Shown here: positions 1-63,999 of the stretch, piece by piece
Layout of the letters: each line of letters starts with the position of its first letter
Position numbering within the stretch: the first letter of the stretch is position 1
Source of the DNA: a virus
Taxonomy: Duplodnaviria; Caudoviricetes
Reading direction: 5' to 3' (one strand)
Length of the DNA: 64,000 nt
IMG/VR virus record: IMGVR_UViG_3300028888_000057
The notes under the pieces: model-generated
Databases searched by the model: none
What the model was told of the DNA's origin: nothing
What the model saw: only the letters and a program-made list of their open reading frames with translations
Program-made: the position numbers and the translations under genes

Positions 1-14
1 CTAATAACACTCCA

Positions 15-3506: not shown

Positions 3507-3817
3507 TTGATAAAAAGCAAGTCATGTTTGACATTGAACGTTGTATTTGCCATGTGCCGGATGCGTGTAAAGATTGCTCTAAATATAAAGGAATTGACGG
3601 ACTCCGATGCATGGAGGAACTAATGGTTGACGCTCATACTCTGCTGAAAGAGCAAGAAGCAGTTGAGCCAACATTTAAGCAAGATAACGATGGCATTTTT
3701 GTCTGGGCGTGTGGTTCATGCGGTGCGTACATGTATCACATCTACGATGGAATTGACAAGGCAAAGGAATACGCAAAATACTGTCGTCAATGCGGCAGAA
3801 AGGTGAAGTGGGAATGA
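3503..3817 (+). CDS. Modular Zn-ribbon protein
   Basis: CKDC module, [15 protein letters not shown]...[12 protein letters not shown]. Confidence 0.8.
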
Positions 3818-4473
3818 AATACAATGGAAGCAATCTGGAAAAAGTTCTTAACTCGCACAAACGTTGGTTGGATAAATCCGAAGGATGGTCGGAAGAAGAT
3901 AGAGCTGATCTGAGTAGAGCCAATCTGTATGAAGTCTATCTGATTGGAGCCGATCTGAGAGAAGCCGATTTGAGAGAAGCAGATCTAATAAAAGCAAATC
4001 TGAGAGGAGCAGACCTGAGAGGAGCTGACCTGAGAGGAGCAGATCTATCTGGAGCAGATCTTGGAGAAGCAGATCTAACTGGAGCAAATCTGACAGGAGC
4101 TCATCTAAGAAGAGCGAAAAATGTCCCATATATTCCTCTGGCATGTCCGGACACAGGAGCGTTCGTGGCATGGAAAAAATGCGAATCGAAAGACGGAATA
4201 GTAATCGTCAAACTGCTGATACCGGAAGATGCCAGACGGAACAGCGGAACAGGCCGAAAATGTAGAGCAGACAGGGCCGTTGTACTTGAAATCCAGACAG
4301 TTGACGGCGATGTGCTTGAAGGAGAAATTGCATGGTCAATGTATAATAATTATTTTACCTATGAGGTTGGCAAAACGGTGACACCAAGCAAACCATTTTG
4401 CGAGGACAGGTTTGATGAATATTCCAGCGGGATTCATTTTTTCATCAATCGACAGGACGCCGTTGAGTTTTGA
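3814..4473 (+). CDS. Pentapeptide-repeat protein with DUF5758-like C-domain
   Basis: A(D/N)LxG repeats; [24 protein letters not shown]. Confidence 0.9.
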
Positions 4474-12094: not shown

Positions 12095-12646
12095 ATGAGC
12101 CAAGTAATAACTGCTCCAAATTCGGAAAAACCAATCTTTATATCACTATTTCTCGCAGGTGGAATTACGAACTGTAAAGATTGGCAAAATGACGTTATTA
12201 AGGAACTCGTTTACGATGATGTTTCGATATTTAATCCAAGACAAGAACATTTTGATATATCAAATAAAAGTGCATCCTATGAACAGATTGCGTGGGAATA
12301 CGAACGTCTAGAACAGATGGACATTTTTTCTATGTACTTTTGCAATAGCGATAGCGATCAGCCAATATGCATGTACGAGCTTGGAAGAAACATTGTTCGC
12401 ATGCAAAACAGATTTCCTGTCGACTGGCAGGAACGAATTATTGTTGGTGTAGAAGATGGGTATCGTCGAAAACATGATGTTATTATTCAAATGAAATTAT
12501 GCGCGCCTTCGATACTCGTAAACGATCGCGCTACTCCTGAAACTCATGCTCAAAGAATTCAAAAAGTAATTAGAAAACTAAATCCTCCTGTTGTTTATAA
12601 TGATTACGAAAGAATGTCTTATTTGAGATCGTGCTCCAGCATATAA
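12095..12646 (+). CDS. Nucleoside 2-deoxyribosyltransferase-like protein
   Basis: FLAGGIT.C.DWQ, FNPR, QIAWE, PICMYELG. Confidence 0.8.
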   Translation: MSQVITAPNSEKPIFISLFLAGGITNCKDWQNDVIKELVYDDVSIFNPRQEHFDISNKSASYEQIAWEYERLEQMDIFSMYFCNSDSDQPICMYELGRNIVRMQNRFPVDWQERIIVGVEDGYRRKHDVIIQMKLCAPSILVNDRATPETHAQRIQKVIRKLNPPVVYNDYERMSYLRSCSSI

Positions 12647-48200: not shown

Positions 48201-48301
48201 GCCCGTCCGCTTGTATCGGAAAGATTATCGTATAAATTACAAACAATATTACCGCTGTAATCGCAGACATCCAGCCGTAGATTCCGTATGTTGGCGTTCA
48301 A
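42272..48301 (-). CDS. Tail-associated protein (Tal / tail spike, 2009 aa)
   Basis: N-terminal prophage-tail-type fold (ELSFTIP, ILEGTGW, TKLYAYG); beta-rich C-half; follows Dit. Confidence 0.85.
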   Translation of the reverse strand: MNANIRNLRLDVCDYSGNIVCNLYDNLSDTSGRATDVFVTSERNGWKELSFTIPSKVYTDERMEDNYRIKYLIADYRIRLMDDYETDWYLISEPKITHNKKSKNVSVVANHISMLLKQKKMDLEFSDEEGNNVGTARQLLETILEGTGWTCGNVAQFMERDQPNVEKVRSLVASAKTGAFKMIASMCELFDAKPIYHGNEMTVDVLPMNPFSEELNDDGTPTEVVNNNIPVLELHYDRNAHNIQRTLNTENICTKLYAYGSYGDREGLCSLQRCEHKEYTMIISGNGEYYFSDGTATYYFYATNARGGDTVVWSMLDATSMSYVWNNREEKAYHVYKKPKYENRTSLTPSVSNIRNYFSFITDFGYYNSVGLLSDDLLQKIAIYQRTAPALLASAEEIYEQVIETQNELSVIAEHNTGFLKLNVIRYEEDGNYLKLILDSSQPVLYRSDYDEPRRRLFTWYVAEELKENGDPVSGVGSVVYAINPSVTPARWRKGYVKKVNDNTEDYIYSAKENDDPNSLVVWLNTNEVNVSNFPIDRTHFYLYCTNSISGKLGVKESEAEALTRTLQQTTKQVTEIHPTYFGWDSDPLPDYRLVQNSYGWFYRSFRDETTLGNLYFCYGLAGDTIWRRVYVSETPPTVVAGEYYFNPRTKLLYHGETQNGILQWVEIGDSGIQIPSHNKYYAPDAEAQRLTNNFSKVVFYCLKRDMLYKGLYDRYEYTTYGDLIPGNYAFEDEYGFIWTFTTDQVVTTGKKIILDTASNNVFQGEINDNIVKAEIKTFDTIDYPLVNELSNVTFNQGAIDRTTHVEYNTEDYVRSNNITLNYSTRYDYHLPSGSYIIFYDSNRRYLDSFGLENTGYFTTSERVRYVRFVCPSIPMSDHYVRVHDYLNRLFISRKQYQILGKVKEETLSLKGNRIGINELIPNLVTLSDQLYLERLPAYNVVTQQITDQNNQLATDLGDLYREGWWQKDSYVEGDEDKLYADAKENLDIISRPEPNYTFTFLDLYGSEQGLTADDRSIADWPDINMSYAAHLIDPDINVDEWAFIDKIEKCYDKPWETKVSIDTNLSLLNQHSFTDVISHIADVAQQTKANQSVYKRACNISGSGKMATDKLEGAIKANVTLLQGGASNWYTDPKGNIVMESADGNSAMMLTGAGYMISNTKDKWGEWEWRSTMTGDGMTADAIYTGLLSGVLIEAGSITTDKINASVGQELEIGSNKALELYATIDGFRPSGSLHTTDALIDIRAGYMNKQGQTIPASISVLSGGEINLKAGSNDNPGGKMNIESNGELNVKGGTVNLESGGSMAIKSGSTLSIQANSEFLVDSPNFSITKDQQGNYAVSITGTVNADAGNIAGFTLGKATSEGVTRHYMHAGEDNSLDSTSNGVYIGTDGINIGGGAFKFSADGTKSHLTIAASDIVLGQGITLGSELTTAKSTISGAALTIDAITGTIGVLAANNITINSGSSVSVLTNGTVSIGSLASPFTIGSSGRKSFIYNNMPTLDSTNLNGIYLGTDGISLGGGNFIVTNGGVLTAQSGTIGGWEIEPAGIHKGDFWLNRIANNVVVDNTIVVQGGKYNPFSGEYPFQVTSGGAMIASNCKVAGDLVAKSLTLQNNAVDVNGTSQLFYFHADFNQFKLEYTTYTSEMRSKTQLLQDNGHLSLEAITEEKSGGKKTVAGIDVNTAGQVILSSTDFDSLGGSNSGITLTPNKITVSSGTLEINCENMTLNGVPFSGGTANLYGQLVEAKDKAVEESIKTVGDTLKGYSTIEQRDAAISAYVTDLQDTSGVYLTPTGIKISGGKTLTLESGGTINISSGNFKVDEAGNLWCKSLKVFNENGTESTIDLSSSTTQYPLWKLYYHTIKKVNGNVITLSNGTTINFKTAASFDLSGQWSNGEYIVDMIDRATSTTVKSNRSGKMTRDKTDADIKSDLEASSHKSYISILDSDGGTLIYILADASDACANSYLEGYYAGGGGSSSEYESAGLRYWGFQVNGEWHSYGSNAMELWKVVS

Positions 48302-48316
48302 TTTTCATCACATCCT

Positions 48317-49441
48317 TTACGCATATGTTGGTTTATAATTGAATGAAAGTGTATCTAAATATAATTCTGTAACAGGAGATATCGTAATCTCGTTCAAGTC
48401 ACAGATCATAGTGGATTCGTTTTGATCTCCGAGCGGTTCTTCTTCGCTGACGCGAAGTGTTAATATATTATCCTCAGTTTGATTCAATATTTTGTGCCAA
48501 TGAGAATTAATGAAAATATATCTGCCTACAACATCTTGTTCAAGATTGTTGAAAAGCGTTACTGTGTTGGTTCCTGAAACAGACACAAAAAGCCCTCTGA
48601 TTACGGGATTTGTCGGCTCAATTTCGATGAAACCTCCCGAATGATATAAAAAGCTTATCTCTGAACTGACGTTATTTCTGAGGACAGTTTTGCCGCTGAT
48701 TCCGTCGATATACAGTTCTTTGCTTCTGTCTGTCGTTGCTGATCTTGTCATACCAACAATACGGCATTCCTGTTTGGTTGTGTTGTTGGTGATGATAATT
48801 CCATCGCCAGCATTGCCAGCCAAAGTTAATCCAACAGCCGCACGTTCAGTTCCTGGATTAGCAAGATAGATTGTTTTTGTGTTCGGGGCTGTTAATTGAA
48901 TGTCACCGAAAGTCATCTGAGGAACCATTTCGCTTCGGATGAATAAACCTGTGTTTTGAATAACTTTGTCATGATATTTGTCGATTGGTAATGAGTAGAA
49001 TAAATGTTCGTTAGTAAAAGGTGCATTGACATTAATACCTCTCGCAAATGGATAGCCTGCCTTCATAGTGATTGTGATGAGCCCATTGCGATAATTCGTC
49101 ATGTCGCGATCATTCACTTCGGTAACTGTTACATAGTACGCATACCAAGGCATTCTTTTAAACACTAACTGACCTGACTTTCCAACCCTGAAAAGCTGAA
49201 ACACTTTACTCATCAATCCACGATCAATATCTTTTTCTTCGTAGAAGCATCTGAGTACAAATTCTTTGGGTTGTTTATAAGCGCCATAGTAATAACCACC
49301 ATTATGGCCATCCATTGTTTCTTCGTGAACAATTGTCTTAGCAGGACGATATACGTATGTGTTCTCTTTGTCTGGTGCGTATTCCAGATTGAAGTCCGCA
49401 ATATCGTATCCGCAAAAAGTAAAACCACCTCTCATGCACAT
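48317..49441 (-). CDS. Distal tail protein (Dit)
   Basis: GFTFCG..., GQLVF..PWYAY, YPFA; lies between tape measure and Tal. Confidence 0.8.
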   Translation of the reverse strand: MCMRGGFTFCGYDIADFNLEYAPDKENTYVYRPAKTIVHEETMDGHNGGYYYGAYKQPKEFVLRCFYEEKDIDRGLMSKVFQLFRVGKSGQLVFKRMPWYAYYVTVTEVNDRDMTNYRNGLITITMKAGYPFARGINVNAPFTNEHLFYSLPIDKYHDKVIQNTGLFIRSEMVPQMTFGDIQLTAPNTKTIYLANPGTERAAVGLTLAGNAGDGIIITNNTTKQECRIVGMTRSATTDRSKELYIDGISGKTVLRNNVSSEISFLYHSGGFIEIEPTNPVIRGLFVSVSGTNTVTLFNNLEQDVVGRYIFINSHWHKILNQTEDNILTLRVSEEEPLGDQNESTMICDLNEITISPVTELYLDTLSFNYKPTYA

Positions 49442-49587: not shown

Positions 49588-52500
49588 TTAAAATGTATAA
49601 CTCGCAAGATTTAATCCTTCTTTACGAAGCTGTTTCGTAAACTCTTGACCAACTCTTCTTGCGACATCTTCGAAATCAGCATCATCCTTCATCTCTGCTC
49701 CGTTAATCGTAATGTTGATATCTCCGATGGTTTGATTGCTTGTGTTTATCTTATCAAGATTTGGAACTCTAAACGGTTCGATATTGACGTAGTTTAAAGC
49801 ATCAGTAAGAGCTTTAATGTTGGCGGTGTCATAAGCACTAAGGAATGCTTCGGGTTTGGACATGGATCCATCAACCCATGCAAGTCCTGTATAATCAACT
49901 AAGCCACCTTCTGCATTTGGGCCTGTAATATGTTTATTTGTTAGAAGCTTTTCTTGATTTTGTTTATTGGCTTCAGCTGCTTTTGCGCCGAGATCTGATA
50001 TGCCCTCAAAGAAGCTACCTAAAACATTTCCAACAGCATTGCTTAAATCATTAAAAGGTTTAGAAATATCGATATTTAAAGGCGGTACTCCAGTTGCAAC
50101 ATTTGATCCACCGACACCCGCAGATGTAGAAGTATGAGTTGTTGCGCTATATGATGATCCATACTCTTTTTCAACAATCTTTTGTGCTTCCGTTTTTGAC
50201 GACGCTTGAACGGAATAACTTGTCTTAAACCCGTTTTTATCATAAACATCATATGTAGATTTGCTAGCTTGTTGTTTCTGTTGCGTTCCCGTATTGGCAG
50301 ATGGAGCAGGTTGTTCAGGCGCTACTGGTCCTTCGCTCTTCGGAACAACGTCTCCGGTTCCGGCGTAATCGCTTGGATTTGTAGGAGCAGGAGTTGGTTC
50401 AGTTGTAGGTTGATCAGGCTGAGTATCGTCAGGTTTGGTATCCTCTTCTTCACCTTTTTCTTTGCCATCGTTTTTATGATCATCGAATGAAGTGAAGCTT
50501 GGATTGTAGCCGCTGCCGTTGTTGTACCAAGAAAAATCAGGATCCCAACCTAAAGCTTCAAGAATTGCTTCTTCTGAATTTTGAGGAGTAAAGTCTTCGT
50601 GAATATCTGGTGTATAATTAATTGCCTGAAGCGCAACACTAACAGCGCTGGCAGCATTAGTCCAGCCATCTTGCCATTGACTTGCCAGCTGAAGTTGTCC
50701 AGTAACACTGGCATTCGCATAATCCAAACTATTCTCATACATGAATTTCATAAAGCTGTCTTGACTTGAAAGTATCTCATTAATCTCATCCCAATAAGTC
50801 TCGACAATACCCTTCATTGCCATCCATGTTTCTTTCCAGCCTTCTTCAAGCTGTTTCTTTCTTTCATCAAGGCTGTTCTGATAATCAATATCATTCTGCT
50901 GCAACCATAAAACGATATCGGAATAACTTCTGCTTAATACTTCTTTGACTTCGGCTGCAAAATTGTTAGCATCAAGAAGCATTTCCTGCAGATTCTCTCC
51001 GTGAATCTGGACGTATTCGTTGATGGCATTAATTTCATCTTCGATACGTTCAGTTGCAGCTTCTGCTTGCTGGCTTGCTTCGTCCCATCTGATATCCTGC
51101 CTCAGTTCATCGATCTTACGGGTAAGCTCTTTAGATTCCTTGCTTCTTGTTGGATCAGCAGAAATAAGAGCTAATTGCCGCTGATAATCATTAAGCTCGC
51201 TGTATTTATTTTCCGCATTCATCATCTGCCTGCGGTAATTCAGCCGCTCATTAATCAGTTGCTTTTCTTTTTCAAGAGCGTCTTTCTTTCGATCAAGCGT
51301 TTCTTTTTCCAGATCCCATTCGTCTTGATATCTGCGTTTGATAACATTGAGGATAATATTCTGCATTTCGACTGTGTTATTTAACATGTCTCTTTGCTTT
51401 TTCTTATTATCTTCAATGACCTTTAAAACCATCTGTTCAAGTTCAAGACGAGTTTTACGAATTGCTTGCTCGTTCTGTCGCAGAAGCTTGTTATTCTTTT
51501 CAATCGCATTATTGTTCTGTAAAAGAGCTTCTTCCTTCTTCTTGATTGCATCTGATAATCTATAGTAATCTTTTTCACTCAGGTTGATGTTTTCAAGCTC
51601 TTCTCTCAAGAGAGTAAGCTCTTCTTCCATAGCTGTAGTATTCTCTTTGCGATAATCAATCTCTTTCTGCAGCATGATGCCATAGTTGGTAAGCTCGCCG
51701 TTAGTTTGATACCTAGTCTGCTCATACTGCATAAGCGTAATGTTATGAGTACGATTACCTTCGTGACGATTAATTTCGTCAAGCAATCTGTCAACTTTAA
51801 TTCCTTCGAGTTCTCTGTCGAAGTTTTCAAGCTCGACTCTCGCAGAAGAAATAGACTCTTCAAGAGACAATACTTTCTGACGCAGATTATCCCATGCGCC
51901 AGAGCCATAAGGCACTGATCCCATTTCAGCTTTCAGTTGTGCTGCTTGTGCCGTCATATCTGCAACAGAAGAAGTTAACTCTTCACGACGCTTTTCGGCC
52001 ATGACAAAGTATGCATCCCAGTTGCCTTGATTCTGATAAATCTGTCCTTGATCTTTAATCAGCTTTTGAATATGACTGCTTAAATCGTTAATTCTATCAA
52101 TGCCTTCAAGGATTTCATCAACGCGATCTTCCATGATATCCATTTCAGCATTGGCGATATTAGCTTCAAGCTCAGTAATCTTGCCTTCAATTTCTTGAAC
52201 CAACTGAAGTTGTTTATAATACTCTTCAGTTTCTTTTACCATAGCTTTAAGCTTTTGAACTTCGATCGCTAACAGGCTTTTCTGAACGGTAATCATTTTA
52301 CGCCAATTTGCGATCTGTCTTTGCATCATATCCCGATACGCACCGTGATTACCAGCCCGCTTATACGCGTTGGCCATAAGCGCGTAACCGTTGTTCTGAT
52401 GCTCCTCGGTCATCGTCTGACGCTGTAAGCTCTCTCTTGTATCATTCTGTTCTTTCTCAAGCTTATCTTTTCTGGCCTTATCTCTTTGAGTGAGCATGTT

Positions 52501-55500
52501 ATCGTTCTGTTCAAGAAGTGAGTTAATCTCTTGAGTAGTATTTAAAGCATTCTGAGTTTGACCTTTGGAATTATAATAATCTCTCAAAGACTCCAACTGA
52601 GTAACATGTTTATTGTTACGTTCTTCAATCTCTTTATAAATATTTTCCTGTTCTTCGAAGAGCTTATTATACGATTCGGTATCTTCATTAAGATCGGCTC
52701 TCTCCATTTGAGAACTGATCATGTTTAATCTGTGAGTATACGGAATCGCTTCATTCTGCTGATACTGTCTTTGAACGTCTAATCTTGTAGCATCTAGCGT
52801 TATTCTATCGTTGACACTCTTGGCAATCTTTTCTGTTAAACTATCTCTTTCTCCAACAAGATCTCTATATCTGTCCGATTCTCCGTTACGCAGATATTCA
52901 TCTTCCATAGCAGAGACGATTTCAGCCCTCCGTCTCCTGTCTTCGGATTCAATATCGTTTATGCCAGTAAGCTGCTTATCAATCTCACCCAGCGCAGCTT
53001 CTGGATCGTTCACATTCATATAGAACGTATAATCGATCTCAGACATAGTTTGCTTATGTTGCAACAGCGTAGAGTTGTACTCATACAGTTGTTTCTGTTG
53101 AGCATCCATCTTGGCATAGAGAGCATCTACGGCTTCAGCTACTCCAGCAAAAGCTTCCTGCGCAGCCCAAAGTGATTCTGTCAATTTGTTCCAGTCATCA
53201 GATCCTTCTTTGGTACTTCTGCGCATGTTCTCAATCTCTTGGATATTCTTTTGATACTGATCTGCTAATCTTTGTTGGACTTGAATTTGCTGATTGACAT
53301 TATCACGATACGCCGCATCATCATTATAACGATCATAATTCTTTTCTTGAATCTCAAGCATCTTTTGATCGTGTTGGATAGCAGATACATCGAACTTTTG
53401 TTTTTCAAGGAGTTTGTCAGCTGCGGACTTGCCGCCGCCGCCTCCACCACCGCCACGACCATGATACTTTCCGTTTGCATTTTTAGAGATTAATGCCTTT
53501 AAGTTGATCTTTTCTTTTCCTTCTTCTTGTACGAAAGTTAAAGAAGCAAGATCTCCAGCATATGCTTCCAGGCGTGCAATTGCTTCTTCAACAGCTGCAC
53601 GAGCAGTATCATCAAGCGCATCTAGATTCAACGTTCCGTCTGGATTAACAGTGATGTTGCTTAAGTCATAATTTAAAGATAAGTCGTCGACCATGCTGTC
53701 CCAGATTGCTTGGAAGTCATCTGTAGCAGCTTCGTTAACAGCGTCTTCAGCGCCATCTAACAACTCAGCCAGTCGATCCTTAGAAAGCTGTTTAATCTCA
53801 TCGGAACTTATTTCCGGGAACAGGCTATCGATAAACCCAAGTGTTTTAGTATCTAATTGTTTACCTGATTTGCCTTGAGCTTTGGATATTGCAGTCATTT
53901 GATCTTGGAAACCTTCAATGTTCTTACGAATCATTTCGGTTCCTTCAGATGCATCTTTGCCGCCCTTCTTTATTTTAGAAAGAGCCGACGCAAGATTTGC
54001 AGAACCTTTACTGAACTGCGTAACATCTTTCAGTTTATCTTCGTTGACCTGCTCGTTGTATTTTCTTAAAGCTTTCTCAGCTGTATTGGCAGAAACACCC
54101 TCAGATTTAAGAATGTTTGCGAGCTCATCAGAATGATCAAGTGAATTAAAAGCATTTATTTCAGCCGCGTACTGCTCTTGATTCTGCATCCAGTCACGAT
54201 AAGTATCAATCATATTCTGACCGGACATGTTACCGCCGAACAGACTGTTCATCGTGGCCCGTTGAGTTTCAGGTGATGCTTTTCTTCCATACAGAGCGTT
54301 ATAATATGCATCATTAATCATATCTTCTGTAATGGCAGAACCTTCTTGTCCGAAGGAGTTTACCATATACAGAAGACCGTTATCTATCGAACCCCAGTCG
54401 ACATTCTTGTTTTGCTGAAGCGCAGAAACACGTTCACTAAAGGACGCTTCTCCACCTTCACCCCACAGCGTATTGTAAACTTCTGACATTGCAGCGCCGC
54501 GTTTACGTGTAGACTCAAGCGAAGAACTCGCAATATCCGATAATGATTTATACGTATTGTCGCTATGAACACCATTTTTTGCTTCGTTGATCGCATTAAG
54601 GAACGGTTCAATAAGCTCACGTAAATCTTCAGGCACTTGATCTAAAGACGAAATGATATCGTCTAAAGACATAGTATCAAAATCAAGAGAAGTTAATAAC
54701 TCTTCAGGAAGAAGTTCGGTTGCAAGTTTCTGATAGAACTCTTTGACTTTATCGTTAATGGCAGTTTGCAGTTCGCCTTCCTGACCGTTCTGAAGCATTT
54801 CATCTACTTGTTCATCAGACAGTCCGAGAAGAGAAGAGATGTATCCACGGTTCTCAGCCGTGTTTCCTCCTTCTAATCCGTATTGTGCTTGTTGCAAAGC
54901 ACGCATCGTATCACTATAACCGCTAATTAAACCTAACTGTTCCGCAAAGGAACCGTTAGTGAAGATATCCCGAGCCGAGACAATCTGCTGGGCGTTTTCG
55001 CGAACATAACGAGATGCGCTCATGTTGAGCTGTTCGGTTAACTGTTGACGGTCAGCTTCACGTTCATTTTGTGAAGCTTCGAGATCGGCAAGTTCTTTCG
55101 CTCTTCGCATTTCAGCAGAACCGTATACGGCAGTTCCACCAGCAGATACAGCTTCTCTGTTTCGTTCAACCATCCGTCTGAATTCAGTACCGTAAGTACT
55201 CATTGACTGAGCGGCCGTATCATACAGGTTCTTATCTTCAAACTGATCTCTGCTAAAACCATTCAAGATTCTGCGTTGAGCTTGTGCTATATCAGTCTGT
55301 GAATAATGCTGTTGAGCATTTAAGAACGGATTTACCTGATCGATATTTGCACCTTTTCCGGTATACGTATATTTTCCTTGCGTCATATCCCAGAAAAGCT
55401 GCGTCATCTTATCGTTAATCTTTCCGCTGCTTTGACCGACAACATCACCGTTTGAGAGAACATTGAATCCATATCGATCCATGAACTTAACGGCGTCTTC

Positions 55501-58500
55501 GTAAGAATAAAGCGCATCGGTTATTTCGTATCCATTTTGCTTAGCCCAATCAGCAGCCAGTTCAACTTGTCCTAATCTTGCAAGTTCGTTTAACGTCCCA
55601 GCAAAAGCTTCTCTATCATTCTCAGCCATTAATTCCGCACGTCGTAATGATCCAGCTCTATCTTTTTGAATTTCGATATCGCTAATACCATATGCACGCA
55701 TAGCAGCATTTTGCTCTTCGTACGTTCCGTTTTCAAGCATGAGAGCCCGTTGCTGATTTTCGTGCATCTCAGATCCGAACTGTAGCTGAGTCTTGATACT
55801 TACATTTCCGTTTTTCTGTAAATCTTCAAGAAGTTGAGTAGTGCCTTGAACAACTTTTCCGGCTTCTTCAAGCTCTGAAATACCAGAAATATTAAGCTTA
55901 ATCTGAATATTGCGATCAAGATTTATACCTTCTTGTTCTTCGGCCCGTTGTTCAGGTTTCATTTGCAGAAGACTAATAATTTCTGGATATTTACTTTGAA
56001 TAGCTGACCATTCGTCAGTAGTCCAGCCTTCTTCGGTCATTACTGTTTGTGCTTCGGCCAAAGATTGGAAGTTTCTACCATAAAGATTACGAGCTAGATC
56101 GGTAGCTTCTTTATTTGTTATTGTACGGCCAGTGCCGACTTTAATTCCTTTTTCGGCTAATGTTCGTGCAACATAATCTTGCAAATCGGCATCTGTTGAA
56201 AGCGTTCTATTTCGTGCAGCTTCAACAATTCTTTGTGTTTCCTGTTCTCCGAAGAAATTTTGAAACACTTTAAAAAGCTCGGAATAGTTGCCGTTTTCTT
56301 TAGTAAAATCTTCAACAAAATTTGGATTGCCTTGAAGAGCATTAAACATCAACGAAGAGATTGCCTTAGAAGTGTCTTCTCCGTTTAACATTGCAGCTGC
56401 AATACTTTGATAATCGCTCCACCTCACACCACTACGAATCTGACGATGCGAAGCTTGCTCCAACTCGTACAATAAAGGATTGTCTCTCTGAACGTTGCTT
56501 AGTTCCGCGCCTTCAGCAAGAAGATCGTAAATATCGAATAAAGATTGCTCGGTATTTGCTTCTAATACTCTATTTAAATATCTGTTTCTAGCTTCTGTTT
56601 TGGCTAATGCTGGCTGCCGTTCTTGTGTTACAGTTTGAGTTGATTTCTGTGCTGTTGAAGGATAAACAGGAGTTCCATTATTTTTTATTTTCGTTAATGC
56701 AATATTATTATCTCTCGCATATTTTTCTGCGTCTTCTTGATTCCAGAATGTTTGATTGACTCCTTGTATTGTATAAGGAGCATCTGTCTCAGAATAAGAT
56801 TTAATTTCATTTGCTGCATTAGATAAATTATCGTAATCGAATGTTTGAGCAAACCAATTTGAAAGAGCGTATTCGTTAAATTCTCCTTCGTCATTAAGCC
56901 AACTGTAACTTTGACCATTTCTTGTGTATTCGCGTTTAAAGTTTCCATTTTCATCATAAAGTTGACTCGTCAGCAAGGTTCGAAGACCAGACTCAATAAC
57001 TTCAACGGAAGTGTTACCTAAAGAAGCAACCTGTTCTAATGTGCCACTTGTTTTATAACTGTTAATCGCATCATCAATAACTTGTTGGATATTCTGCTTC
57101 CTTTGCTCTTGATTTCTTGCTTCCGTAAAATTACCAGAGAAAAATTGATCCAGAACGTATTCATAAGCGTTCGATATTCTATCAAGTACACCTTCGTTTT
57201 CTAAATCCAACGACTGCGTTCCGTCGAGCCACTGCAATATATCTTCATATCTAGAATCGCTTAAGAATGTTTTTAAACTGTTGCGATATTTTCCTTGGTC
57301 ACTTGACCACAATCGTTTGAAAACATTGGCGCGTCTTTTTCGAGCAAGATTTTCATCCTCACCCTCTACTAATCCTAACCAGCCACCATCTCTAAAGTTT
57401 ATAGACATGGCCTGTTCTTTTGTCAGGTCATCACTAAAATTAACACCTTGCCCACGAATAAATTGTTCATTACTTAACGCGCGCTTAAGGCCGATTTCAA
57501 ATTCACTTGCTCGGCTTTCTGTAATATTTTCACCTTCGAGAGTTCTGTAATTCTCAGGAAGATAATCTCTTACATATTGATTTGCATTATCAACATTTTC
57601 TTTATCTGCATCTTTTTTAAACTTTTGAGCAGTATCTTCTGCTGATTTAACGGCTTCTTCCCAACCAGAAAGTTTTTCAATAGCACTCTGCACTGAATCA
57701 GAAACATTAGGAAATACTTTTGCCAAATCTAATAAAGCAGCCCGGAGATTATTTCCCGCCGTAGCTTTCGCAGCTGCATCAGTTTTTTCATTAAGCGAAT
57801 CGTATACTTTTCCTAATTTCTTAACTTCATCAATTGCATCCTGCTGGGTTTTTACATCGTTATCATTATAAGACTTTGTTGTCCCTAATGTTTCAAGAGC
57901 TTTCGCGTTCTTCTTTTCAAATTTTTCGCGTTCTGTTTCTGTTGATCCGAGTCCGGCAAGTAAATTTGTTCCGTATGAAGCAACCGCAAATCCACCAAGT
58001 GCGGCTAATATCGTAGCTATTCCAGCCAATGGTCCAAGTTTAACAGAGTTCAACGCAACTGCAATCGCTGCAATACCAGCTGCAATACCACCTAAGATAG
58101 GAGCAGCATTTGATCCATTTGCTATATTTTGCAAGAACCCTGACAACAAATCGAGAACATTTGTAATGTCTCCTCCGTTAACAAAGCTCTCTACGACAGC
58201 GTCCCAAGAACTTCTAACGGTATCCATCGATGCCGCAAGGCTCTGCATGGCAATCTCATACTTACTTTGAGTTACGCCTTCAGATCCTTCTGCCAGCCCC
58301 AAGTACTTCTCCAATGTAGCACCGTTATCTTCAGACATACCTTCCATCAATGTAGAGAAGATGTTTGTCTGACGAGTACCAGCCATTGCGTTGGTAACAA
58401 TGGACTTCTGAGCGTCGCTTAAGTTCTTCCAGACTTTGGACAAGTCTAACATTACATCGTAAGCAGATCTCATCTGTCCGACTGTTTTGTTATCCCAGAG

Positions 58501-61500
58501 ATCAACACCTACAGCAGCAAGTGCAGCTTCAGCGTCGGAAGCAGTCGTCTTCTCACCGTTTTGATCGGCTGTGTAGCCTGTAAGGCTCAGCCTTCTCATG
58601 CGGGAGAACACTGTCTGTAAGGCTGTACCGACCTGGGTACCGCTTAACTGTGTATCGGAAGTACCGATAGTAAGTAAGGCTGTTAACTCTTCGTAGGATA
58701 CGCCTGCAACTTTGGCAGAAGCAGCAGCTTTCTGCATACCTTTACCAATCTCAGCCGCAGTTGTAGCAGCAGAGTCACCTAACGCTACCAGCGCGTCCAT
58801 CGCTGCTTCGGCAGAAGGAACTAAGTCATTCTGTAATGCAGTAGTGATAATCTTGGTAGCTTCAGCAACATTAAGCTTAGTGACGGTAGCAAACTTGATA
58901 ATAGATTCTGTACGGTCAGCTACTTCTGTGTCGGATAAGCCTTGACGATAAAGTGCAGCTTCGGTAGTAGCTACGTTAGAAACAGAGGTTCTGAGACCAA
59001 TAGCACGATTAATCGTTCCGGTACGCACGTCACGCATTTCGCCGTTGGACTTCATGGTGATGGCTTGGATCTCGTTCATGGAAGCGTCAAATTCTTTTAC
59101 AAAGCGCTTTGTTTCTTGAAGAGCTTTTTGGAAGAGTTGACGACCAAGACGTTGGGCAACCATACCGATTGCTTGACCTAATTCTCCGAACACAGCCTGA
59201 GCTGTTTGTCCGCCGCTGGTCAGTTGATCAAGTTGACTCTTTGCTTCTTGAGAAGCTTTATCTAAGTTCTTTAGCTGTTGAGTGGCTTGATCATATCCAA
59301 ACTGCGCAGCATTAATCTTTTCCTGATCTCCAGATTTTTTTGCAATCTCCAGTTGTTTAGTGTAGTAATCCTGATTACGCTGAGCATCTTCTTTTTGACG
59401 ATCGATAGAGTAGACTTGCTCTCTTGCATTCTCTCTGCGTTGTTCAACTCCGTAAAGAGCTTGAGCAATACGGGAGCGGCTGTAACGCATTTGTTGTTGC
59501 CGATTCGCTTGACTGAAAGCACGTTGCATATTATGAACGCGAATATCGCCTTGCATTGCAGAAGACGTCAAAGCATTATCTCTTTGTAGTTGACGTAAAA
59601 TTTGATTATTATCATATTGCTCTGTAATGCGCTGCTCTAAGATTGGATCAGTATTAGCAAGTAATAATGCTTCTTGTTCAGAATACCGTTTCGCTCTACG
59701 AAGCTTTTCTGCTCTAGCGTTTCTTGAAGCTTTAGCTTGAGCCAAACGATATTGTATTTCTTCGTCTCTCGTCATCGAGCGACCTTGCAATTGAGCATCA
59801 AGCTGATATCCTTCTGCGTCAAGTTGAAGATTCCGTTGCTCTCTATTAAAACTTACTTGTTCTCTTGCTCGAGCTTTTATTCGTCTATTGGAATATTCTT
59901 GTTCGAAAGCATTTCGATCAAAATCAGGGTCATTTATGTGTTCTGCTTTATAACGATCTCTCTGTAATTTCATTTGATCATACATTTGATCAAATTCTTC
60001 TTTTGCCGAAAAATCCTCACCACTAAATAATGTATCTAGATTGCGCTTAGAAACACGTGTTTGAGCATTTTTCATCACTTCTCTGAAATATTCATCTTCT
60101 CTATTTCGCTTTGAATATTGATCCCATAAATCCTTATTATCAAGTATTTTATCATATTCGTTCCGAAGAGGATCGTCCAGTCCCAAAACGTCTCTTTGAG
60201 CAGTAATCTGATCTTTTAATTGTTGGACTTTTATATCAGCTCTATCAGTCGAAGATAAGTTGCCGTTTGTTAGTTCCCGTTGATATTTGGCTAACTGATC
60301 AAAACGTTGACGGTTCAATCTTGCTAGCATATCATCAGCTTGAGAATTAATTTTATCAACTTTAGTTTCTTCTTCTTTTGACATAATCGAAGAAGCGTCT
60401 CTTGTATAATCAGGCATTAATCCAGTACGCTGAAATTCTTCATATAAAATCGCGTCTGATTCTTCTTGTGTTAACTTATTTCCAGCTACAGCAACTCTTC
60501 TTTGTTTTCTCCAATTTTCTACAATCTCTTCTGGCGTTTGAGTTATTAATCCTAAGCGTTGTTGAAGATCGCGCTGAACAATTGCTTCTGGCTTATCACT
60601 TTCGAGGAATGAATCAGCTTGCTGTATTCTGTCTTGTCTATCTTTGATTATTTTTGCATAAGCTTCAGCTTCATCTTCTGTAATGTCCGGATTTACTATT
60701 TTTTCACTTGCTTCCTTAATTTCATTTGACCAGTTATCTATCTTTTGCTGAATTTGCTTTCTTTTATCGGCAAATGCCGCTTCAATCATTTCCGCCGGAT
60801 CTTGTATTTCACCGATGAGACTTGACCAGTCTGCATCTTGAGCTTCTTTGTCAGATTTTAAATAACGGTCAAGTGCCGGTTTTATCTCTTCCATTGCCAC
60901 TTCTTCAGCGTCAATCGAATCTAAAAATCTCTTTTTTTGTTCTCTTGCGACTTCAGCAAGTTTAGTATTATCTGAATCAACATTGAATAACTCAGCTTGT
61001 TCTTCAGGCGATAAATATGCATCTGCAAGTTCTTTGTATTCACCAGTTGGACCCATTTTTGTAATATAGCCACGGTAAATACTTTCTCCGCCAACTTCCA
61101 TCTTTTTAATGAAGTCTCGACTGCTTTTAGCAGCCAACAATCTACTAGTAACACCAGACAGTGTTTTCATAGTGTTCGATCTTTGGACTCCATTTAGACT
61201 ATTTGTGATATCTTCTCCCGCTTTATCCCAGTCTGTCACAGCGGCTTCAGAACCCAATTTATCAATTTGAGAAAGCAATCTTAACTTTTGTCTTATATCG
61301 TCTGTTAATTTTTCTCTTACTGGAGAATCAGAATCGTATCCATAAGCAACAGCATTGACTACTTCTTCTGGAAGAACTTCCATAAGTTTATTTCGGTAAT
61401 TTTCGAATCGATTAAACTTTCTTTCCGGTAGATCCATTTCACGGAAAATGCTGCTTCGAATCTGATTCATAGTTTCAAGATCGCTTGGATATCTAGACAA

Positions 61501-63999
61501 GAAAAACTCTCTGTCTTTTTGAGACATATCTCTATGATTTTCCTGAGCTCTAGACGTATATTCTTCGGCTTGACGCTTTTCTCTAGACTCTCTAGCTATC
61601 GCAGCTGCATAAGCGCGGCCTTCGTCATCTAATGTTTTTGCGTCAATCATTTTATGCTCCATTGCATATTGAACATCTTTTTCGACTTCTGCAAAAACGG
61701 ACTCATTATCCGCTCTTCTAGCTAAGATATGCGCGTCTTCTCGAGGATTATATCCAATTACACCACCAAGATCAGATACATATTTTTTAGCTACATCGTC
61801 CCAGTGCCCAACTCCAGCAAATGCCTTATATGAAGTTGCATTTGTTTCAGGATTCGGAGAATGCAAATTTTCATAATATTCCTGAGCATATTTGTCCATG
61901 ATGGAATTGTAGAAAATAGACTGAATAAGAGATTCAGCTGCTCCTTCTGCGCTAGACTTATAGTCTATTGTATATAGCAATCCATCATTTTTATTTCGAA
62001 GCATTAAGTCCGGTTTCGCGTGTGTCCGTTTTGAAGTGTCATATCCGACAATCTGGCCGTCTTTATCTCTTATTGGTATTTGAATGTTGAAATCTTTTTG
62101 CATCGGGATTGCGCCGAGGCTTTCTCCGTTTGGTCCATAACTATAAAAATCTCCTTCAACATTCACAGGACGTTCAGTGTCGAAGCCAAGATTATTTAAA
62201 GACTTAATAAACTTAGCTGATGATGAAACTGGATTATTTTTAGTCGGAAGTATTTTATTTAATTTTTGAACAGCTGTGTTACTTCTATCGCCTTTTACTT
62301 CAAATAAAGGCTTTTCACCGTCTTTGCTGATTCTCGATATGTTTATCCCGTATTGGTTTAATTTATCATTATATCCGCCAATATAAGCATCAGTATAAAA
62401 ATCATCTATAGATCTTCCATTTAAAGTTCCATCGGCCGCTGCTTTAAAATATTGCTCGAACGCCCCATGCATCAATAAACCTTGAAGGGTATGCTCGTTT
62501 TCAAACGGTTGATTTCGTAGTTCTGCTTGAGCCTGTAAGATTTGATCAGCAAGATTATTAAAGCTTTTTATTGTCGTTTCGGTGTTTCTTGCACCAGATG
62601 GAGTAAACTCAGTTGTATTTAGTCTATATTCTTTATCTGGCATCCAGTGCTTAAATGATGTCCAATTCATTTGAATATGATCATCATCCCAAACGCCGTT
62701 TTTTAATCTCTCTTCCTCTGCTGCTTTCTGAGCTTCTTCTTCTGCTTTCGCGTCATATGAAGTAATCTTCGCTTGTTCTTTTATTGCATCTCGGACCGCT
62801 GAATCAACAGCTTTGTCACTCTGCCTTTTGCTTTGATGCTTCACAAGACGATCAATTAAACCAAACCTGTCTCTATTTTCTTCAACGTTGTTTCCATTCG
62901 CTATTTCTGTTAAAATACGATCTCTTTCAGTTTGAAGGTTTTTAACAGTAAATCCTTCTCCGCTTTCAAGTTCGTGAATGCGACGAACAAATCTATTGTA
63001 TTTTTTATACTCTTCTTCGTCTGTTGAAACATTTCGACCGCTTAAACTGGCCTCCCAACGTTGTGCAATATCGTAACCATTTACGATATCTTCATCTGTC
63101 ATAGCTCGACCAGTCATCATTTCAGAGAACTTTTTAGCGTACCATCTTGTGGCTTGAGCTTCAGATGACGCGGATTTTCCGTATTTGCGTTCAATTAAAC
63201 GGTTTACATTATTGTTAAAATCGGAGAAATCTGTTGAACCGTTTTCATAATCTATTGCTCGCAAAGCAACAGCAAGTGCTCCTTGAGGGCCTGAAATAGT
63301 CGCGAACTTAACTTTAAAAAGTTGATCAAGAGCTTCTTCTTCTTTTTCGAGATATGGATCTCGACCATCTTCTTCTGCTAACTCATTAAGTTTTGTCACA
63401 AAACGAAGATAGCTTCCGCCATTACTAAGAAAAGATTCAGTATCTTTATCGAGTTTGAGTTCTTGACCTTTCGTTCTCATATCGGAAGAAGCAAAATCAT
63501 AAGCTTTCATTCCTTTATAAGCAAGCTTCCACTTTTGAGGATCTGAGTCGGGAAGATCCATGGCGTCTCGAATTATTTTCGAAGCAGCGCCCATTGCTCT
63601 CGTTGATTTCTGATAATTCTCAAGAGCTTTAATCCTACTTTCAAGCACATCTCCAGTTTTTGCTTTTGGTTCTTCTATATTACCTTTATAGCTTTCTTCT
63701 TTTTCTATTTCTGCTTGAGCTTCTTGTATTTTTTTGCTTATATAATCCATATGTGCATACGAGGCATCTTCAAGTCCGGCATACATACGGATTGTATCTC
63801 CATCGAAGTCTCCAGTGTTCATTTGATATGCTTGTTGAGTAGTTAAATATATTGCATTATCAAGCTGCTCTTGTGTAATCCCGAATTTTCCTAAAGCTTT
63901 AGAAGCCATGTTGTAAGCAACAATGCGCTGATCTGGCGCATCCGGATTTCTATTAAAAGCAGCACGTTTATTAAATGAAAGATTTTTGCCGCCTGTAGC
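49588..63999 (-). CDS. Giant tape-measure protein with N-terminal RNA polymerase-like and PD-(D/E)XK nuclease-like domains (5'-partial, at least 4803 aa)
   Basis: Frame open past ATG 63909 to the window edge; TP901-type domain about 59100-58200; TM region about 58100-57950; long coiled coils; GGLVDYTGLAWVDG..PEAFL C-domain; NRNP and GDFDGD motifs; upstream of Dit and Tal. Confidence 0.9.
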   Translation of the reverse strand, partial: ATGGKNLSFNKRAAFNRNPDAPDQRIVAYNMASKALGKFGITQEQLDNAIYLTTQQAYQMNTGDFDGDTIRMYAGLEDASYAHMDYISKKIQEAQAEIEKEESYKGNIEEPKAKTGDVLESRIKALENYQKSTRAMGAASKIIRDAMDLPDSDPQKWKLAYKGMKAYDFASSDMRTKGQELKLDKDTESFLSNGGSYLRFVTKLNELAEEDGRDPYLEKEEEALDQLFKVKFATISGPQGALAVALRAIDYENGSTDFSDFNNNVNRLIERKYGKSASSEAQATRWYAKKFSEMMTGRAMTDEDIVNGYDIAQRWEASLSGRNVSTDEEEYKKYNRFVRRIHELESGEGFTVKNLQTERDRILTEIANGNNVEENRDRFGLIDRLVKHQSKRQSDKAVDSAVRDAIKEQAKITSYDAKAEEEAQKAAEEERLKNGVWDDDHIQMNWTSFKHWMPDKEYRLNTTEFTPSGARNTETTIKSFNNLADQILQAQAELRNQPFENEHTLQGLLMHGAFEQYFKAAADGTLNGRSIDDFYTDAYIGGYNDKLNQYGINISRISKDGEKPLFEVKGDRSNTAVQKLNKILPTKNNPVSSSAKFIKSLNNLGFDTERPVNVEGDFYSYGPNGESLGAIPMQKDFNIQIPIRDKDGQIVGYDTSKRTHAKPDLMLRNKNDGLLYTIDYKSSAEGAAESLIQSIFYNSIMDKYAQEYYENLHSPNPETNATSYKAFAGVGHWDDVAKKYVSDLGGVIGYNPREDAHILARRADNESVFAEVEKDVQYAMEHKMIDAKTLDDEGRAYAAAIARESREKRQAEEYTSRAQENHRDMSQKDREFFLSRYPSDLETMNQIRSSIFREMDLPERKFNRFENYRNKLMEVLPEEVVNAVAYGYDSDSPVREKLTDDIRQKLRLLSQIDKLGSEAAVTDWDKAGEDITNSLNGVQRSNTMKTLSGVTSRLLAAKSSRDFIKKMEVGGESIYRGYITKMGPTGEYKELADAYLSPEEQAELFNVDSDNTKLAEVAREQKKRFLDSIDAEEVAMEEIKPALDRYLKSDKEAQDADWSSLIGEIQDPAEMIEAAFADKRKQIQQKIDNWSNEIKEASEKIVNPDITEDEAEAYAKIIKDRQDRIQQADSFLESDKPEAIVQRDLQQRLGLITQTPEEIVENWRKQRRVAVAGNKLTQEESDAILYEEFQRTGLMPDYTRDASSIMSKEEETKVDKINSQADDMLARLNRQRFDQLAKYQRELTNGNLSSTDRADIKVQQLKDQITAQRDVLGLDDPLRNEYDKILDNKDLWDQYSKRNREDEYFREVMKNAQTRVSKRNLDTLFSGEDFSAKEEFDQMYDQMKLQRDRYKAEHINDPDFDRNAFEQEYSNRRIKARAREQVSFNREQRNLQLDAEGYQLDAQLQGRSMTRDEEIQYRLAQAKASRNARAEKLRRAKRYSEQEALLLANTDPILEQRITEQYDNNQILRQLQRDNALTSSAMQGDIRVHNMQRAFSQANRQQQMRYSRSRIAQALYGVEQRRENAREQVYSIDRQKEDAQRNQDYYTKQLEIAKKSGDQEKINAAQFGYDQATQQLKNLDKASQEAKSQLDQLTSGGQTAQAVFGELGQAIGMVAQRLGRQLFQKALQETKRFVKEFDASMNEIQAITMKSNGEMRDVRTGTINRAIGLRTSVSNVATTEAALYRQGLSDTEVADRTESIIKFATVTKLNVAEATKIITTALQNDLVPSAEAAMDALVALGDSAATTAAEIGKGMQKAAASAKVAGVSYEELTALLTIGTSDTQLSGTQVGTALQTVFSRMRRLSLTGYTADQNGEKTTASDAEAALAAVGVDLWDNKTVGQMRSAYDVMLDLSKVWKNLSDAQKSIVTNAMAGTRQTNIFSTLMEGMSEDNGATLEKYLGLAEGSEGVTQSKYEIAMQSLAASMDTVRSSWDAVVESFVNGGDITNVLDLLSGFLQNIANGSNAAPILGGIAAGIAAIAVALNSVKLGPLAGIATILAALGGFAVASYGTNLLAGLGSTETEREKFEKKNAKALETLGTTKSYNDNDVKTQQDAIDEVKKLGKVYDSLNEKTDAAAKATAGNNLRAALLDLAKVFPNVSDSVQSAIEKLSGWEEAVKSAEDTAQKFKKDADKENVDNANQYVRDYLPENYRTLEGENITESRASEFEIGLKRALSNEQFIRGQGVNFSDDLTKEQAMSINFRDGGWLGLVEGEDENLARKRRANVFKRLWSSDQGKYRNSLKTFLSDSRYEDILQWLDGTQSLDLENEGVLDRISNAYEYVLDQFFSGNFTEARNQEQRKQNIQQVIDDAINSYKTSGTLEQVASLGNTSVEVIESGLRTLLTSQLYDENGNFKREYTRNGQSYSWLNDEGEFNEYALSNWFAQTFDYDNLSNAANEIKSYSETDAPYTIQGVNQTFWNQEDAEKYARDNNIALTKIKNNGTPVYPSTAQKSTQTVTQERQPALAKTEARNRYLNRVLEANTEQSLFDIYDLLAEGAELSNVQRDNPLLYELEQASHRQIRSGVRWSDYQSIAAAMLNGEDTSKAISSLMFNALQGNPNFVEDFTKENGNYSELFKVFQNFFGEQETQRIVEAARNRTLSTDADLQDYVARTLAEKGIKVGTGRTITNKEATDLARNLYGRNFQSLAEAQTVMTEEGWTTDEWSAIQSKYPEIISLLQMKPEQRAEEQEGINLDRNIQIKLNISGISELEEAGKVVQGTTQLLEDLQKNGNVSIKTQLQFGSEMHENQQRALMLENGTYEEQNAAMRAYGISDIEIQKDRAGSLRRAELMAENDREAFAGTLNELARLGQVELAADWAKQNGYEITDALYSYEDAVKFMDRYGFNVLSNGDVVGQSSGKINDKMTQLFWDMTQGKYTYTGKGANIDQVNPFLNAQQHYSQTDIAQAQRRILNGFSRDQFEDKNLYDTAAQSMSTYGTEFRRMVERNREAVSAGGTAVYGSAEMRRAKELADLEASQNEREADRQQLTEQLNMSASRYVRENAQQIVSARDIFTNGSFAEQLGLISGYSDTMRALQQAQYGLEGGNTAENRGYISSLLGLSDEQVDEMLQNGQEGELQTAINDKVKEFYQKLATELLPEELLTSLDFDTMSLDDIISSLDQVPEDLRELIEPFLNAINEAKNGVHSDNTYKSLSDIASSSLESTRKRGAAMSEVYNTLWGEGGEASFSERVSALQQNKNVDWGSIDNGLLYMVNSFGQEGSAITEDMINDAYYNALYGRKASPETQRATMNSLFGGNMSGQNMIDTYRDWMQNQEQYAAEINAFNSLDHSDELANILKSEGVSANTAEKALRKYNEQVNEDKLKDVTQFSKGSANLASALSKIKKGGKDASEGTEMIRKNIEGFQDQMTAISKAQGKSGKQLDTKTLGFIDSLFPEISSDEIKQLSKDRLAELLDGAEDAVNEAATDDFQAIWDSMVDDLSLNYDLSNITVNPDGTLNLDALDDTARAAVEEAIARLEAYAGDLASLTFVQEEGKEKINLKALISKNANGKYHGRGGGGGGGGKSAADKLLEKQKFDVSAIQHDQKMLEIQEKNYDRYNDDAAYRDNVNQQIQVQQRLADQYQKNIQEIENMRRSTKEGSDDWNKLTESLWAAQEAFAGVAEAVDALYAKMDAQQKQLYEYNSTLLQHKQTMSEIDYTFYMNVNDPEAALGEIDKQLTGINDIESEDRRRRAEIVSAMEDEYLRNGESDRYRDLVGERDSLTEKIAKSVNDRITLDATRLDVQRQYQQNEAIPYTHRLNMISSQMERADLNEDTESYNKLFEEQENIYKEIEERNNKHVTQLESLRDYYNSKGQTQNALNTTQEINSLLEQNDNMLTQRDKARKDKLEKEQNDTRESLQRQTMTEEHQNNGYALMANAYKRAGNHGAYRDMMQRQIANWRKMITVQKSLLAIEVQKLKAMVKETEEYYKQLQLVQEIEGKITELEANIANAEMDIMEDRVDEILEGIDRINDLSSHIQKLIKDQGQIYQNQGNWDAYFVMAEKRREELTSSVADMTAQAAQLKAEMGSVPYGSGAWDNLRQKVLSLEESISSARVELENFDRELEGIKVDRLLDEINRHEGNRTHNITLMQYEQTRYQTNGELTNYGIMLQKEIDYRKENTTAMEEELTLLREELENINLSEKDYYRLSDAIKKKEEALLQNNNAIEKNNKLLRQNEQAIRKTRLELEQMVLKVIEDNKKKQRDMLNNTVEMQNIILNVIKRRYQDEWDLEKETLDRKKDALEKEKQLINERLNYRRQMMNAENKYSELNDYQRQLALISADPTRSKESKELTRKIDELRQDIRWDEASQQAEAATERIEDEINAINEYVQIHGENLQEMLLDANNFAAEVKEVLSRSYSDIVLWLQQNDIDYQNSLDERKKQLEEGWKETWMAMKGIVETYWDEINEILSSQDSFMKFMYENSLDYANASVTGQLQLASQWQDGWTNAASAVSVALQAINYTPDIHEDFTPQNSEEAILEALGWDPDFSWYNNGSGYNPSFTSFDDHKNDGKEKGEEEDTKPDDTQPDQPTTEPTPAPTNPSDYAGTGDVVPKSEGPVAPEQPAPSANTGTQQKQQASKSTYDVYDKNGFKTSYSVQASSKTEAQKIVEKEYGSSYSATTHTSTSAGVGGSNVATGVPPLNIDISKPFNDLSNAVGNVLGSFFEGISDLGAKAAEANKQNQEKLLTNKHITGPNAEGGLVDYTGLAWVDGSMSKPEAFLSAYDTANIKALTDALNYVNIEPFRVPNLDKINTSNQTIGDINITINGAEMKDDADFEDVARRVGQEFTKQLRKEGLNLASYTF

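Follow-up and report, generated by a model that had tools for sequence, protein, structure and literature searches.

Tape-measure proteins have long been viewed as rulers, which at times bear cell-wall enzymes. A 2024 study of the Thermus phage P23-45 established that a tape measure can carry the first RNA polymerase of the phage (PMC10770324). This protein, gp96, is a virion polymerase fused to the tape which transcribes the pre-early genes, providing evidence for the delivery of such a module, and the authors propose that the polymerase sits at a pore formed by the tape measure (PMC10770324). Here we describe a giant tape-measure protein of similar design, encoded on a 64,000 nucleotide stretch of the IMG/VR virus record IMGVR_UViG_3300028888_000057 (Duplodnaviria; Caudoviricetes), referred to below in its full length as the window. 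The subject of the analysis is a predicted nuclease domain of the RecB family, within the PD-(D/E)XK superfamily, which lies in this protein directly behind a putative RNA polymerase module.

The protein resembles gp96 in being a giant tape measure (5782 amino acids (aa), compared to 5002 aa in gp96) in which a DFDGD polymerase at the N-terminus is combined with membrane segments and a tape core (PMC10770324). However, gp96 has no counterpart of the nuclease, as a hidden Markov model (HMM) of the domain gave no match to it at E <= 100, the hhalign comparison returned a P of 0.47, and no D...DxK...QxxxY pattern is present. A nuclease goes unmentioned in the gp96 paper, and gp96 instead carries a metallopeptidase domain (PMC10770324).

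The nuclease domains of RecB, AddA and AdnA (and also of Dna2 and MGME1) have the core fold in common with the window domain, as well as the motif order GxxxH...E / E / D / DYK / QxxxY. The likeness to RecB and AddA extends to the layout, as the nuclease follows a DNA-translocating motor in one polypeptide, although their motor is a helicase and the one here is an RNA polymerase. The window domain differs from this family in having an insert of ~90 residues that separates motif I from the first core strand, in an extra beta-hairpin region, and in residing in a virion tail protein. Cas4 and the Cas4-like nucleases of phages or associated with Argonaute (ACE1, DUF2800) have the fold and the DxK and QxxxY motifs in common with it, but their Fe-S cysteines are absent here.

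Two further kinds of delivered protein can be compared. The tape-measure-like protein Tme of the Streptomyces davawensis contractile injection system has a nuclease domain with DNase activity shown experimentally (PMC11126660); that nuclease is, however, C-terminal, EndA-like (DRGH/H-N-N) and of unrelated fold, the injection system is not a phage, and there is no polymerase (PMC11126660). Polyvalent proteins of phages and conjugative elements likewise combine several enzymes in one huge polypeptide thought to enter with the DNA, but their domains are shuffled, whereas the set here is fixed across relatives and no processing peptidase was identified; tape measures are not mentioned (0 occurrences) in the survey of these proteins (PMC5512222). 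A full-text literature search for tape measures together with PDDEXK returned only co-mentions which, judged by title and abstract, are unrelated. What is new is therefore not the parts but their combination: a known nuclease superfamily and the known enzyme-bearing tape measures, joined in a new sequence family.

A RecB-family nuclease domain predicted within the tape measure

The open reading frame (ORF) at 49588..63909 (-) encodes 4773 aa and is still open at the window edge. By database look-up, the complete tape-measure protein of 5782 aa is encoded on a 149,320-bp contig, and residue 1 of the window ORF is residue 1010 of the full-length protein. Its identity as a tape measure is supported by a match to PF10145 (ORF aa 1640-1844, E 1.4e-28), and several PHROG tape-measure families also match it. 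A DxDGD motif, a tape core and hydrophobic segments are found in this single ORF, as in tape-measure-fused virion RNA polymerases of the P23-45 gp96 type, and the DFDGD sequence marks a putative N-terminal two-barrel RNA polymerase module when compared with DFDGD 779-783 of gp96 (PMC10770324). The features of the protein, ordered from its N-terminal side, are:

49588..63999 (-): part of the 5782-aa tape measure encoded in the window; the ORF continues beyond the window end, with full-length residues 1-979 outside it
63796..63810 (-): DFDGD metal-binding motif of the putative N-terminal RNA polymerase module (ORF aa 34-38; full-length aa 1043)
62503..62667 (-): N-terminal extension, carrying the conserved Trp motif (predicted local distance difference test score, pLDDT, < 50 in the model)
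62644-62667 (-): NWTSFKHW (ORF aa 415-422)
61720..62502 (-): predicted PD-(D/E)XK (RecB-family) nuclease domain, confidently modelled part (ORF aa 470-730; full-length aa 1479-1739)
62449..62481 (-): GLLMHGAFEQY, motif I helix (ORF aa 477-487; full-length G1486, H1490 and E1494)
62149..62166 (-): VNVEGD, where the first core strand starts; its E-G (E1594) is invariant (ORF aa 582-587)
61999..62019 (-): AKPDLML, with the predicted catalytic Asp D1643, start of model strand 236-240 (ORF aa 631-637)
61951..61968 (-): IDYKSS, (D/E)xK motif with D1658 and K1660 (ORF aa 648-653)
61909..61929 (-): LIQSIFY, QxxxY motif with Q1672 and Y1676, helix after the DYK strand (ORF aa 661-667)
58378..58992 (-): PhageMin_Tail, tape-measure core domain (PF10145 match)
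57970..58110 (-): two adjacent hydrophobic Gly/Ala-rich segments, putative membrane hairpin (ORF aa 1933-1980; Kyte-Doolittle scan)

A sequence-only reading of the window had proposed a RecB/Cas4-like nuclease at 61740-62670 from six motif strings. All six are present in the order given, at ORF aa 415-667, and the coordinates are correct; the DYK motif lies 615 residues downstream of DFDGD. Judged from the sequence, no residue of the metal-binding and catalytic set is missing (H1490/E1494, E1594, D1643, D1658-x-K1660 and Q1672...Y1676), with E1594 of VNVEGD taken, outside of any alignment, as the likely equivalent of RecB E1020. The first string, NWTSFKHW, had been assigned to the 'S...' motif of the series. 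The string itself is there and its final W is invariant in eight giant relatives (see below), but it is conserved only as W..[FLV][KQE][HNP]W, and with a pLDDT < 50 its assigned place in the fold is tentative.

Relatives of a query of 331 residues (P0002, window 61720-62712 (-)) were sought with phmmer, run exhaustively over 1.84 billion representative proteins. Only eight proteins matched. Five are giants (4352-6256 aa) in which the matching region falls around residues 1440-1850, and the other three are short pieces. A separate search with the polymerase region added two further giants, in both of which the nuclease domain was detected (E 5e-58 and 7e-20) by an HMM built without them. The domain is present in 8/8 related polymerase-tape-measure giants, with D[Y/W]K located 615-672 residues after DxDGD. 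Conservation was determined in an alignment of 11 sequences (the eight giants and three fragments, 23-93% identity). The invariant columns are one Trp of the N-terminal motif, G..MH...E, E-G, the Asp of (P/F)D, D-[Y/W]-K-S and Q...Y, which are exactly the residues predicted to be essential if the domain belongs to the RecB family. Far from being poorly conserved among homologs, the motif residues are thus invariant in all 11 sequences down to 23% identity. The domain contains no cysteine in any of the 11.

A stand-alone form of the domain was considered and rejected, as the three short matches are probably fragments of giants. The evidence comes from P0008, which extends beyond the domain into what comes next in the giants; the remaining two are incomplete. 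No domain-bearing proteins of middle length (705-2010 aa) were found, which is in itself weak evidence. Searches of GenBank phages for related DNA by blastn and tblastn gave no match, and those of IMG/VR viral contigs, JGI metagenome contigs and GTDB genome contigs gave pattern matches only, none of which was confirmed as a relative.

Structure prediction recovered a restriction-endonuclease-like fold. An AlphaFold2 model made from a 9-sequence alignment had a predicted template modelling score (pTM) of 0.72, with P0002 residues 71-331 mostly at pLDDT 70-91; the model from the single sequence was poor (pLDDT 42.7). GxxMH...E lies on helix 73-93, E186 directly precedes strand 188-192, D235 marks the beginning of strand 236-240, D250 and K252 mark the end of strand 246-250, and Q264...Y268 falls within helix 257-283. 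This is the motif order expected of the alpha-beta-beta-beta-alpha-beta core, and the predicted structure has the features of the PD-(D/E)XK superfamily, namely the core fold with the Asp on strand 2 and (D/E)xK on strand 3.

The model was compared with 48,161 representatives of the PDB in a search independent of Foldseek, and the first eight matches were all nucleases of the RecB/Cas4 class (Z 8.4-5.8, 140-185 residues aligned): Dna2 (Z 8.4, 160 aligned, root mean square deviation 3.8), AddA (7.1), AdnA (6.9), ACE1 (6.6), MGME1 (6.4 and 6.2), a second AdnA entry (5.9) and RecB (5.8). When the 1000 best Foldseek chains were rescored, 19 had a Z of 5.2-8.5 and all of these are nuclease domains of Dna2, AdnA, AddA, AddB, MGME1 or RecB, below which Z falls to 4.8 and 3.8. 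These top matches cover 127-197 residues. Chains of PD-(D/E)XK proteins are also enriched among the weak rows of Foldseek against the PDB, and among the predicted viral structures of BFVD most of the named top matches are phage PD-(D/E)XK or RecB-like exonucleases (E 2e-3 to 1e-1). Nucleases of the YqaJ type and Lambda Exo gave weak matches only (RecE, Z 4.4; LHK-Exo, Z 3.7). As Z alone is middling, and domains of this kind make up very little of the library, the structural case rests on the uniform identity of the top matches.

The helical insert at P0002 residues 70-161 (window ~62230-62505) gave Z values of 3.0-3.8 to helices of the RNA polymerase largest subunit (E. coli beta', Pol II Rpb1), a likeness that is probably one of generic helical arrangement.

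The window's own sequence had no match when HMMER was run against PDDEXK_1 and Cas4, so that the nuclease claim was not confirmed by this means alone; in Pfam, P0002 had no match to PF12705 at E <= 10 and only one to AbiJ_NTD3 (E 0.13). Nothing was returned for the domain from PHROGs (a larger 1030-aa piece matched phrog_14539, function unknown, at E 0.002), NCBIfam gave noise only, and PADLOC gave none. The fragment homologue P0012 did match PF12705 at E 0.003 and 17.9 bits, below the Pfam gathering threshold of 22 bits, and also had sub-threshold matches (E 0.004) to models of Argonaute-associated Cas4-like nucleases (PADLOC Aga_Cas4-like_Nuc). As the PF12705 threshold was missed, the domain is to be seen as a relative at the level of the superfamily or clan, and not as a Pfam-defined member.

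The alignment of the family was then compared by hhalign with 7 RecB nuclease domains and with 30 PF12705 domains from proteobacterial genomes, giving scores of 35.9 (P 3.4e-4) and 29.1 (P 3.8e-3) respectively. The maxima from 150 column shuffles were 27.0 (RecB) and 17.0 (PF12705), and reversed alignments scored 18.0 and 13.7. D235 (D1643) is paired with RecB D1067 and with the Asp of PDDEXK_1 'RIDRVD', D250-Y-K252 (D1658-Y-K1660) with RecB D1080-Y-K1082, and Q...Y with the Q...Y of PDDEXK_1 members; H82 (H1490) is paired with RecB H956 (GTFLHSLFE) in a low-confidence extended alignment. The nearest clusters in the ESM Atlas, which is based on a protein language model, are PF12705 and DUF2800 (scores 0.88-0.91).

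Conservation, predicted structure, profile alignment and language-model neighbours agree on the central claim, a RecB-type PD-(D/E)XK nuclease in which the catalytic D, D and K are intact. On the strength of the model, residues ~1479-1739 very probably adopt the RecB-family fold with an intact site, and the invariance of these residues makes it likely that the domain is an active enzyme. Of the 'RecB/Cas4-like' label, the RecB/AddA-like half holds and Cas4 proper does not. Cas4 proper was rejected as the four Fe-S cysteines are absent (0 cysteines in 11/11 members), which leaves no Fe-S cluster and places the domain with RecB and AddA, and as the neighbourhood is not one of CRISPR-cas or Argonaute genes, the flanks being tail genes. 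Within the RecB-type branch, the domain is divergent, lacks an Fe-S cluster and is beyond the reach of Pfam detection.

Proposed action at the entry pore and its alternatives

All close structural relatives of the domain cut single-stranded DNA (ssDNA) or DNA ends, with the substrate often supplied by a motor in the same polypeptide. For this reason an ssDNA or DNA-end nuclease at the entry site is the favoured role. Together with the putative N-terminal RNA polymerase directly ahead of it, the nuclease makes up a polymerase-nuclease module of fixed layout, situated head-proximally in the tape measure. During infection, the tape measure would leave the tail before the DNA, as siphophage tape measures and P23-45 gp96 suggest, and by analogy with P23-45 the N-terminal module would arrive at the cytoplasmic mouth of the entry pore, beside the leading end of the genome. 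There the domain may cut ssDNA or DNA ends in a Mg2+-dependent manner, like RecB, AddA, AdnA, Dna2 and MGME1. The preferred target would be the leading end of the incoming phage genome, with trimming or resection aiding either the loading of the sigma-less polymerase or end joining; host or competitor DNA would be the second choice. We give this reading as a whole, a delivered RecB-family nuclease behind the polymerase and acting at the entry pore, a probability of about 0.75. Its parts are not equally firm: delivery of the nuclease to the cytoplasm, argued from analogy, is somewhat more probable than its converse, and the phage's own leading end as the target, for polymerase loading or end joining, is put forward tentatively. 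It is plausible, as the sequence-only reading suggested more broadly, that the nuclease is a co-delivered cargo which processes ends, attacks host DNA or counters defence, and the constant presence and position of the domain in 8/8 diverged relatives argues for a core role in entry or early transcription over that of a swappable anti-defence cargo.

Several points weigh against the reading of a delivered nuclease. No curated family model of Pfam, PHROGs, NCBIfam or PADLOC reaches its threshold on the window's domain. PDB sequences gave no match by phmmer, and profiles of 4 and 6 sequences gave none or noise (E >= 0.29); the hhalign probability is low (9-38%) and its confident stretch is short (25-45 columns). 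The alignment behind the AlphaFold2 model holds 9 sequences only, Foldseek against the PDB gave no match at E <= 0.001 (best E 0.15), and the best Z of 8.5 falls in a range that is common for models with no true match. In terms of mechanism, a nuclease tethered beside the entering genome would endanger the phage, which speaks against a non-specific DNase, and a two-helix hairpin would leave the two halves of the giant on one and the same membrane side, which complicates simple models of delivery. Finally, the activity, substrate and delivery of the nuclease, and its release from the tape measure, rest on inference.

The same fold and the same intact site would equally suit an active, delivered DNase that is directed not at the phage genome but at host or competitor DNA, such as the chromosome (for shut-off), resident plasmids or prophages, or DNA intermediates linked to defence. 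Multidomain 'polyvalent' proteins that are injected and bear effector enzymes have been described (PMC5512222), and the tape-measure-like effector of the Streptomyces contractile injection system has a proven nuclease (PMC11126660). Cargo of an arms race usually varies, however, and here the position is fixed in 8/8 giants down to 23% identity; the tether to the tape measure would also limit the reach of the domain unless it is cleaved off, and self-protection was considered only as far as one window gene, which is nucleoside 2-deoxyribosyltransferase-like. We regard host or competitor DNA as a possible but doubtful target. The position of the domain immediately after the polymerase module, at a constant distance, could instead point to an RNA endonuclease that partners the polymerase, either freeing nascent transcripts or cleaving host RNA. 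The PD-(D/E)XK cap-snatching endonucleases fused to the polymerases of influenza viruses and bunyaviruses provide the model for this, and weak structural matches to the L-protein endonucleases of hantavirus and phenuivirus (Z 2.6-3.7) were obtained. Such a role is improbable, as the strong structural and profile matches are all to RecB-family ssDNA nucleases, and DYK with QxxxY, aligned here by hhalign, is known as the signature of DNA nucleases of the RecB/AddA type.

It is also conceivable that the fold has no enzymatic role and serves in DNA-end binding or structure, for example by keeping the end of the genome in place within the tail or as an anchor for the polymerase, as inactive PD-(D/E)XK domains such as that of RecC exist. 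That all catalytic and metal-binding residues are invariant among sequences otherwise 23-30% identical is the pattern of a selected active site, and makes this very unlikely. Chance resemblance of the motifs, with no restriction-endonuclease-like fold behind them, would accord with the sub-threshold curated HMMs, the non-significant Foldseek result against the PDB and the middling Z values; yet the hhalign scores were attained by 0/150 shuffles, a single nuclease family accounts for the top 19 structural matches, the motifs are invariant and the language-model neighbours give independent evidence, so that this explanation is hardly credible.

A variant of the delivered nuclease reading would have the polymerase and nuclease act as one coupled machine at the entry pore, comparable to the helicase-nuclease of RecB and AddA but driven by an RNA polymerase. 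Resection or nicking of the leading genome end by the nuclease, or cutting of the displaced strand, would provide an ssDNA template for the sigma-less polymerase. Pre-early transcription would then depend on a DNA end and not on promoter melting, and would also draw the genome in. This variant is speculative and we consider it unlikely.

The tape measure and neighbouring genes

Within the giant protein, the pair of hydrophobic segments comes after the tape-measure core. The C-terminal third of the tape measure contains a run of eight glycines (HGRGGGGGGGGKSA; window 53431-53454 (-), ORF aa 3486-3493), and a run of 6-11 glycines is found at a comparable position in every related giant. This conserved run could be a hinge or a processing site.

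Downstream of the tape measure lie tail-tip genes, recognised by their domain matches:

42272..49441 (-): downstream tail-tip genes
48317-49441 (-): distal tail protein (Sipho_tail, sub-threshold, 22.4 of 24.2 bits)
42272-48301 (-): 2009-aa tail-associated protein (YOMG_N, Prophage_tail)

Besides the 2009-aa protein, two other very large ORFs are present in the tail region on the (-) strand. The 1773-aa ORF at 21345-26666 has no Pfam match, and the sole Pfam match of the 2251-aa ORF at 28148-34903 is to DUF6273, near the C-terminus.

Three genes on the (+) strand were also noted. A tyrosine recombinase (window 3-932, open at the window start; Phage_integrase, E 3e-23) may indicate that the phage is temperate, or may be an enzyme used for inversion or resolution. 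A pentapeptide-repeat protein fused to DUF5758 is encoded at 3790-4473 (E 4e-27 and 1e-31), and DNA mimicry is known for some pentapeptide-repeat proteins. The nucleoside 2-deoxyribosyltransferase-like protein at 12095-12646 (PF15891, E 1.3e-16) could be linked to the metabolism of nucleotides or DNA bases, and hence to self-protection against a delivered nuclease.

Significance for long-tailed phages

By analogy with P23-45, this phage probably delivers a nuclease together with a polymerase into the cell along with its DNA. The lineage adds a second nucleic-acid enzyme to the tape measure, the position of which behind the polymerase is fixed in every relative found, and the domain represents a new PD-(D/E)XK family that is undetected by current family libraries. 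An active nuclease would mean that the DNA, on its arrival, first encounters a polymerase and a nuclease combined in one protein. This would bear on the start of transcription in a long-tailed phage, on the protection or processing of its genome ends, or on an attack against host DNA ahead of any phage gene expression.

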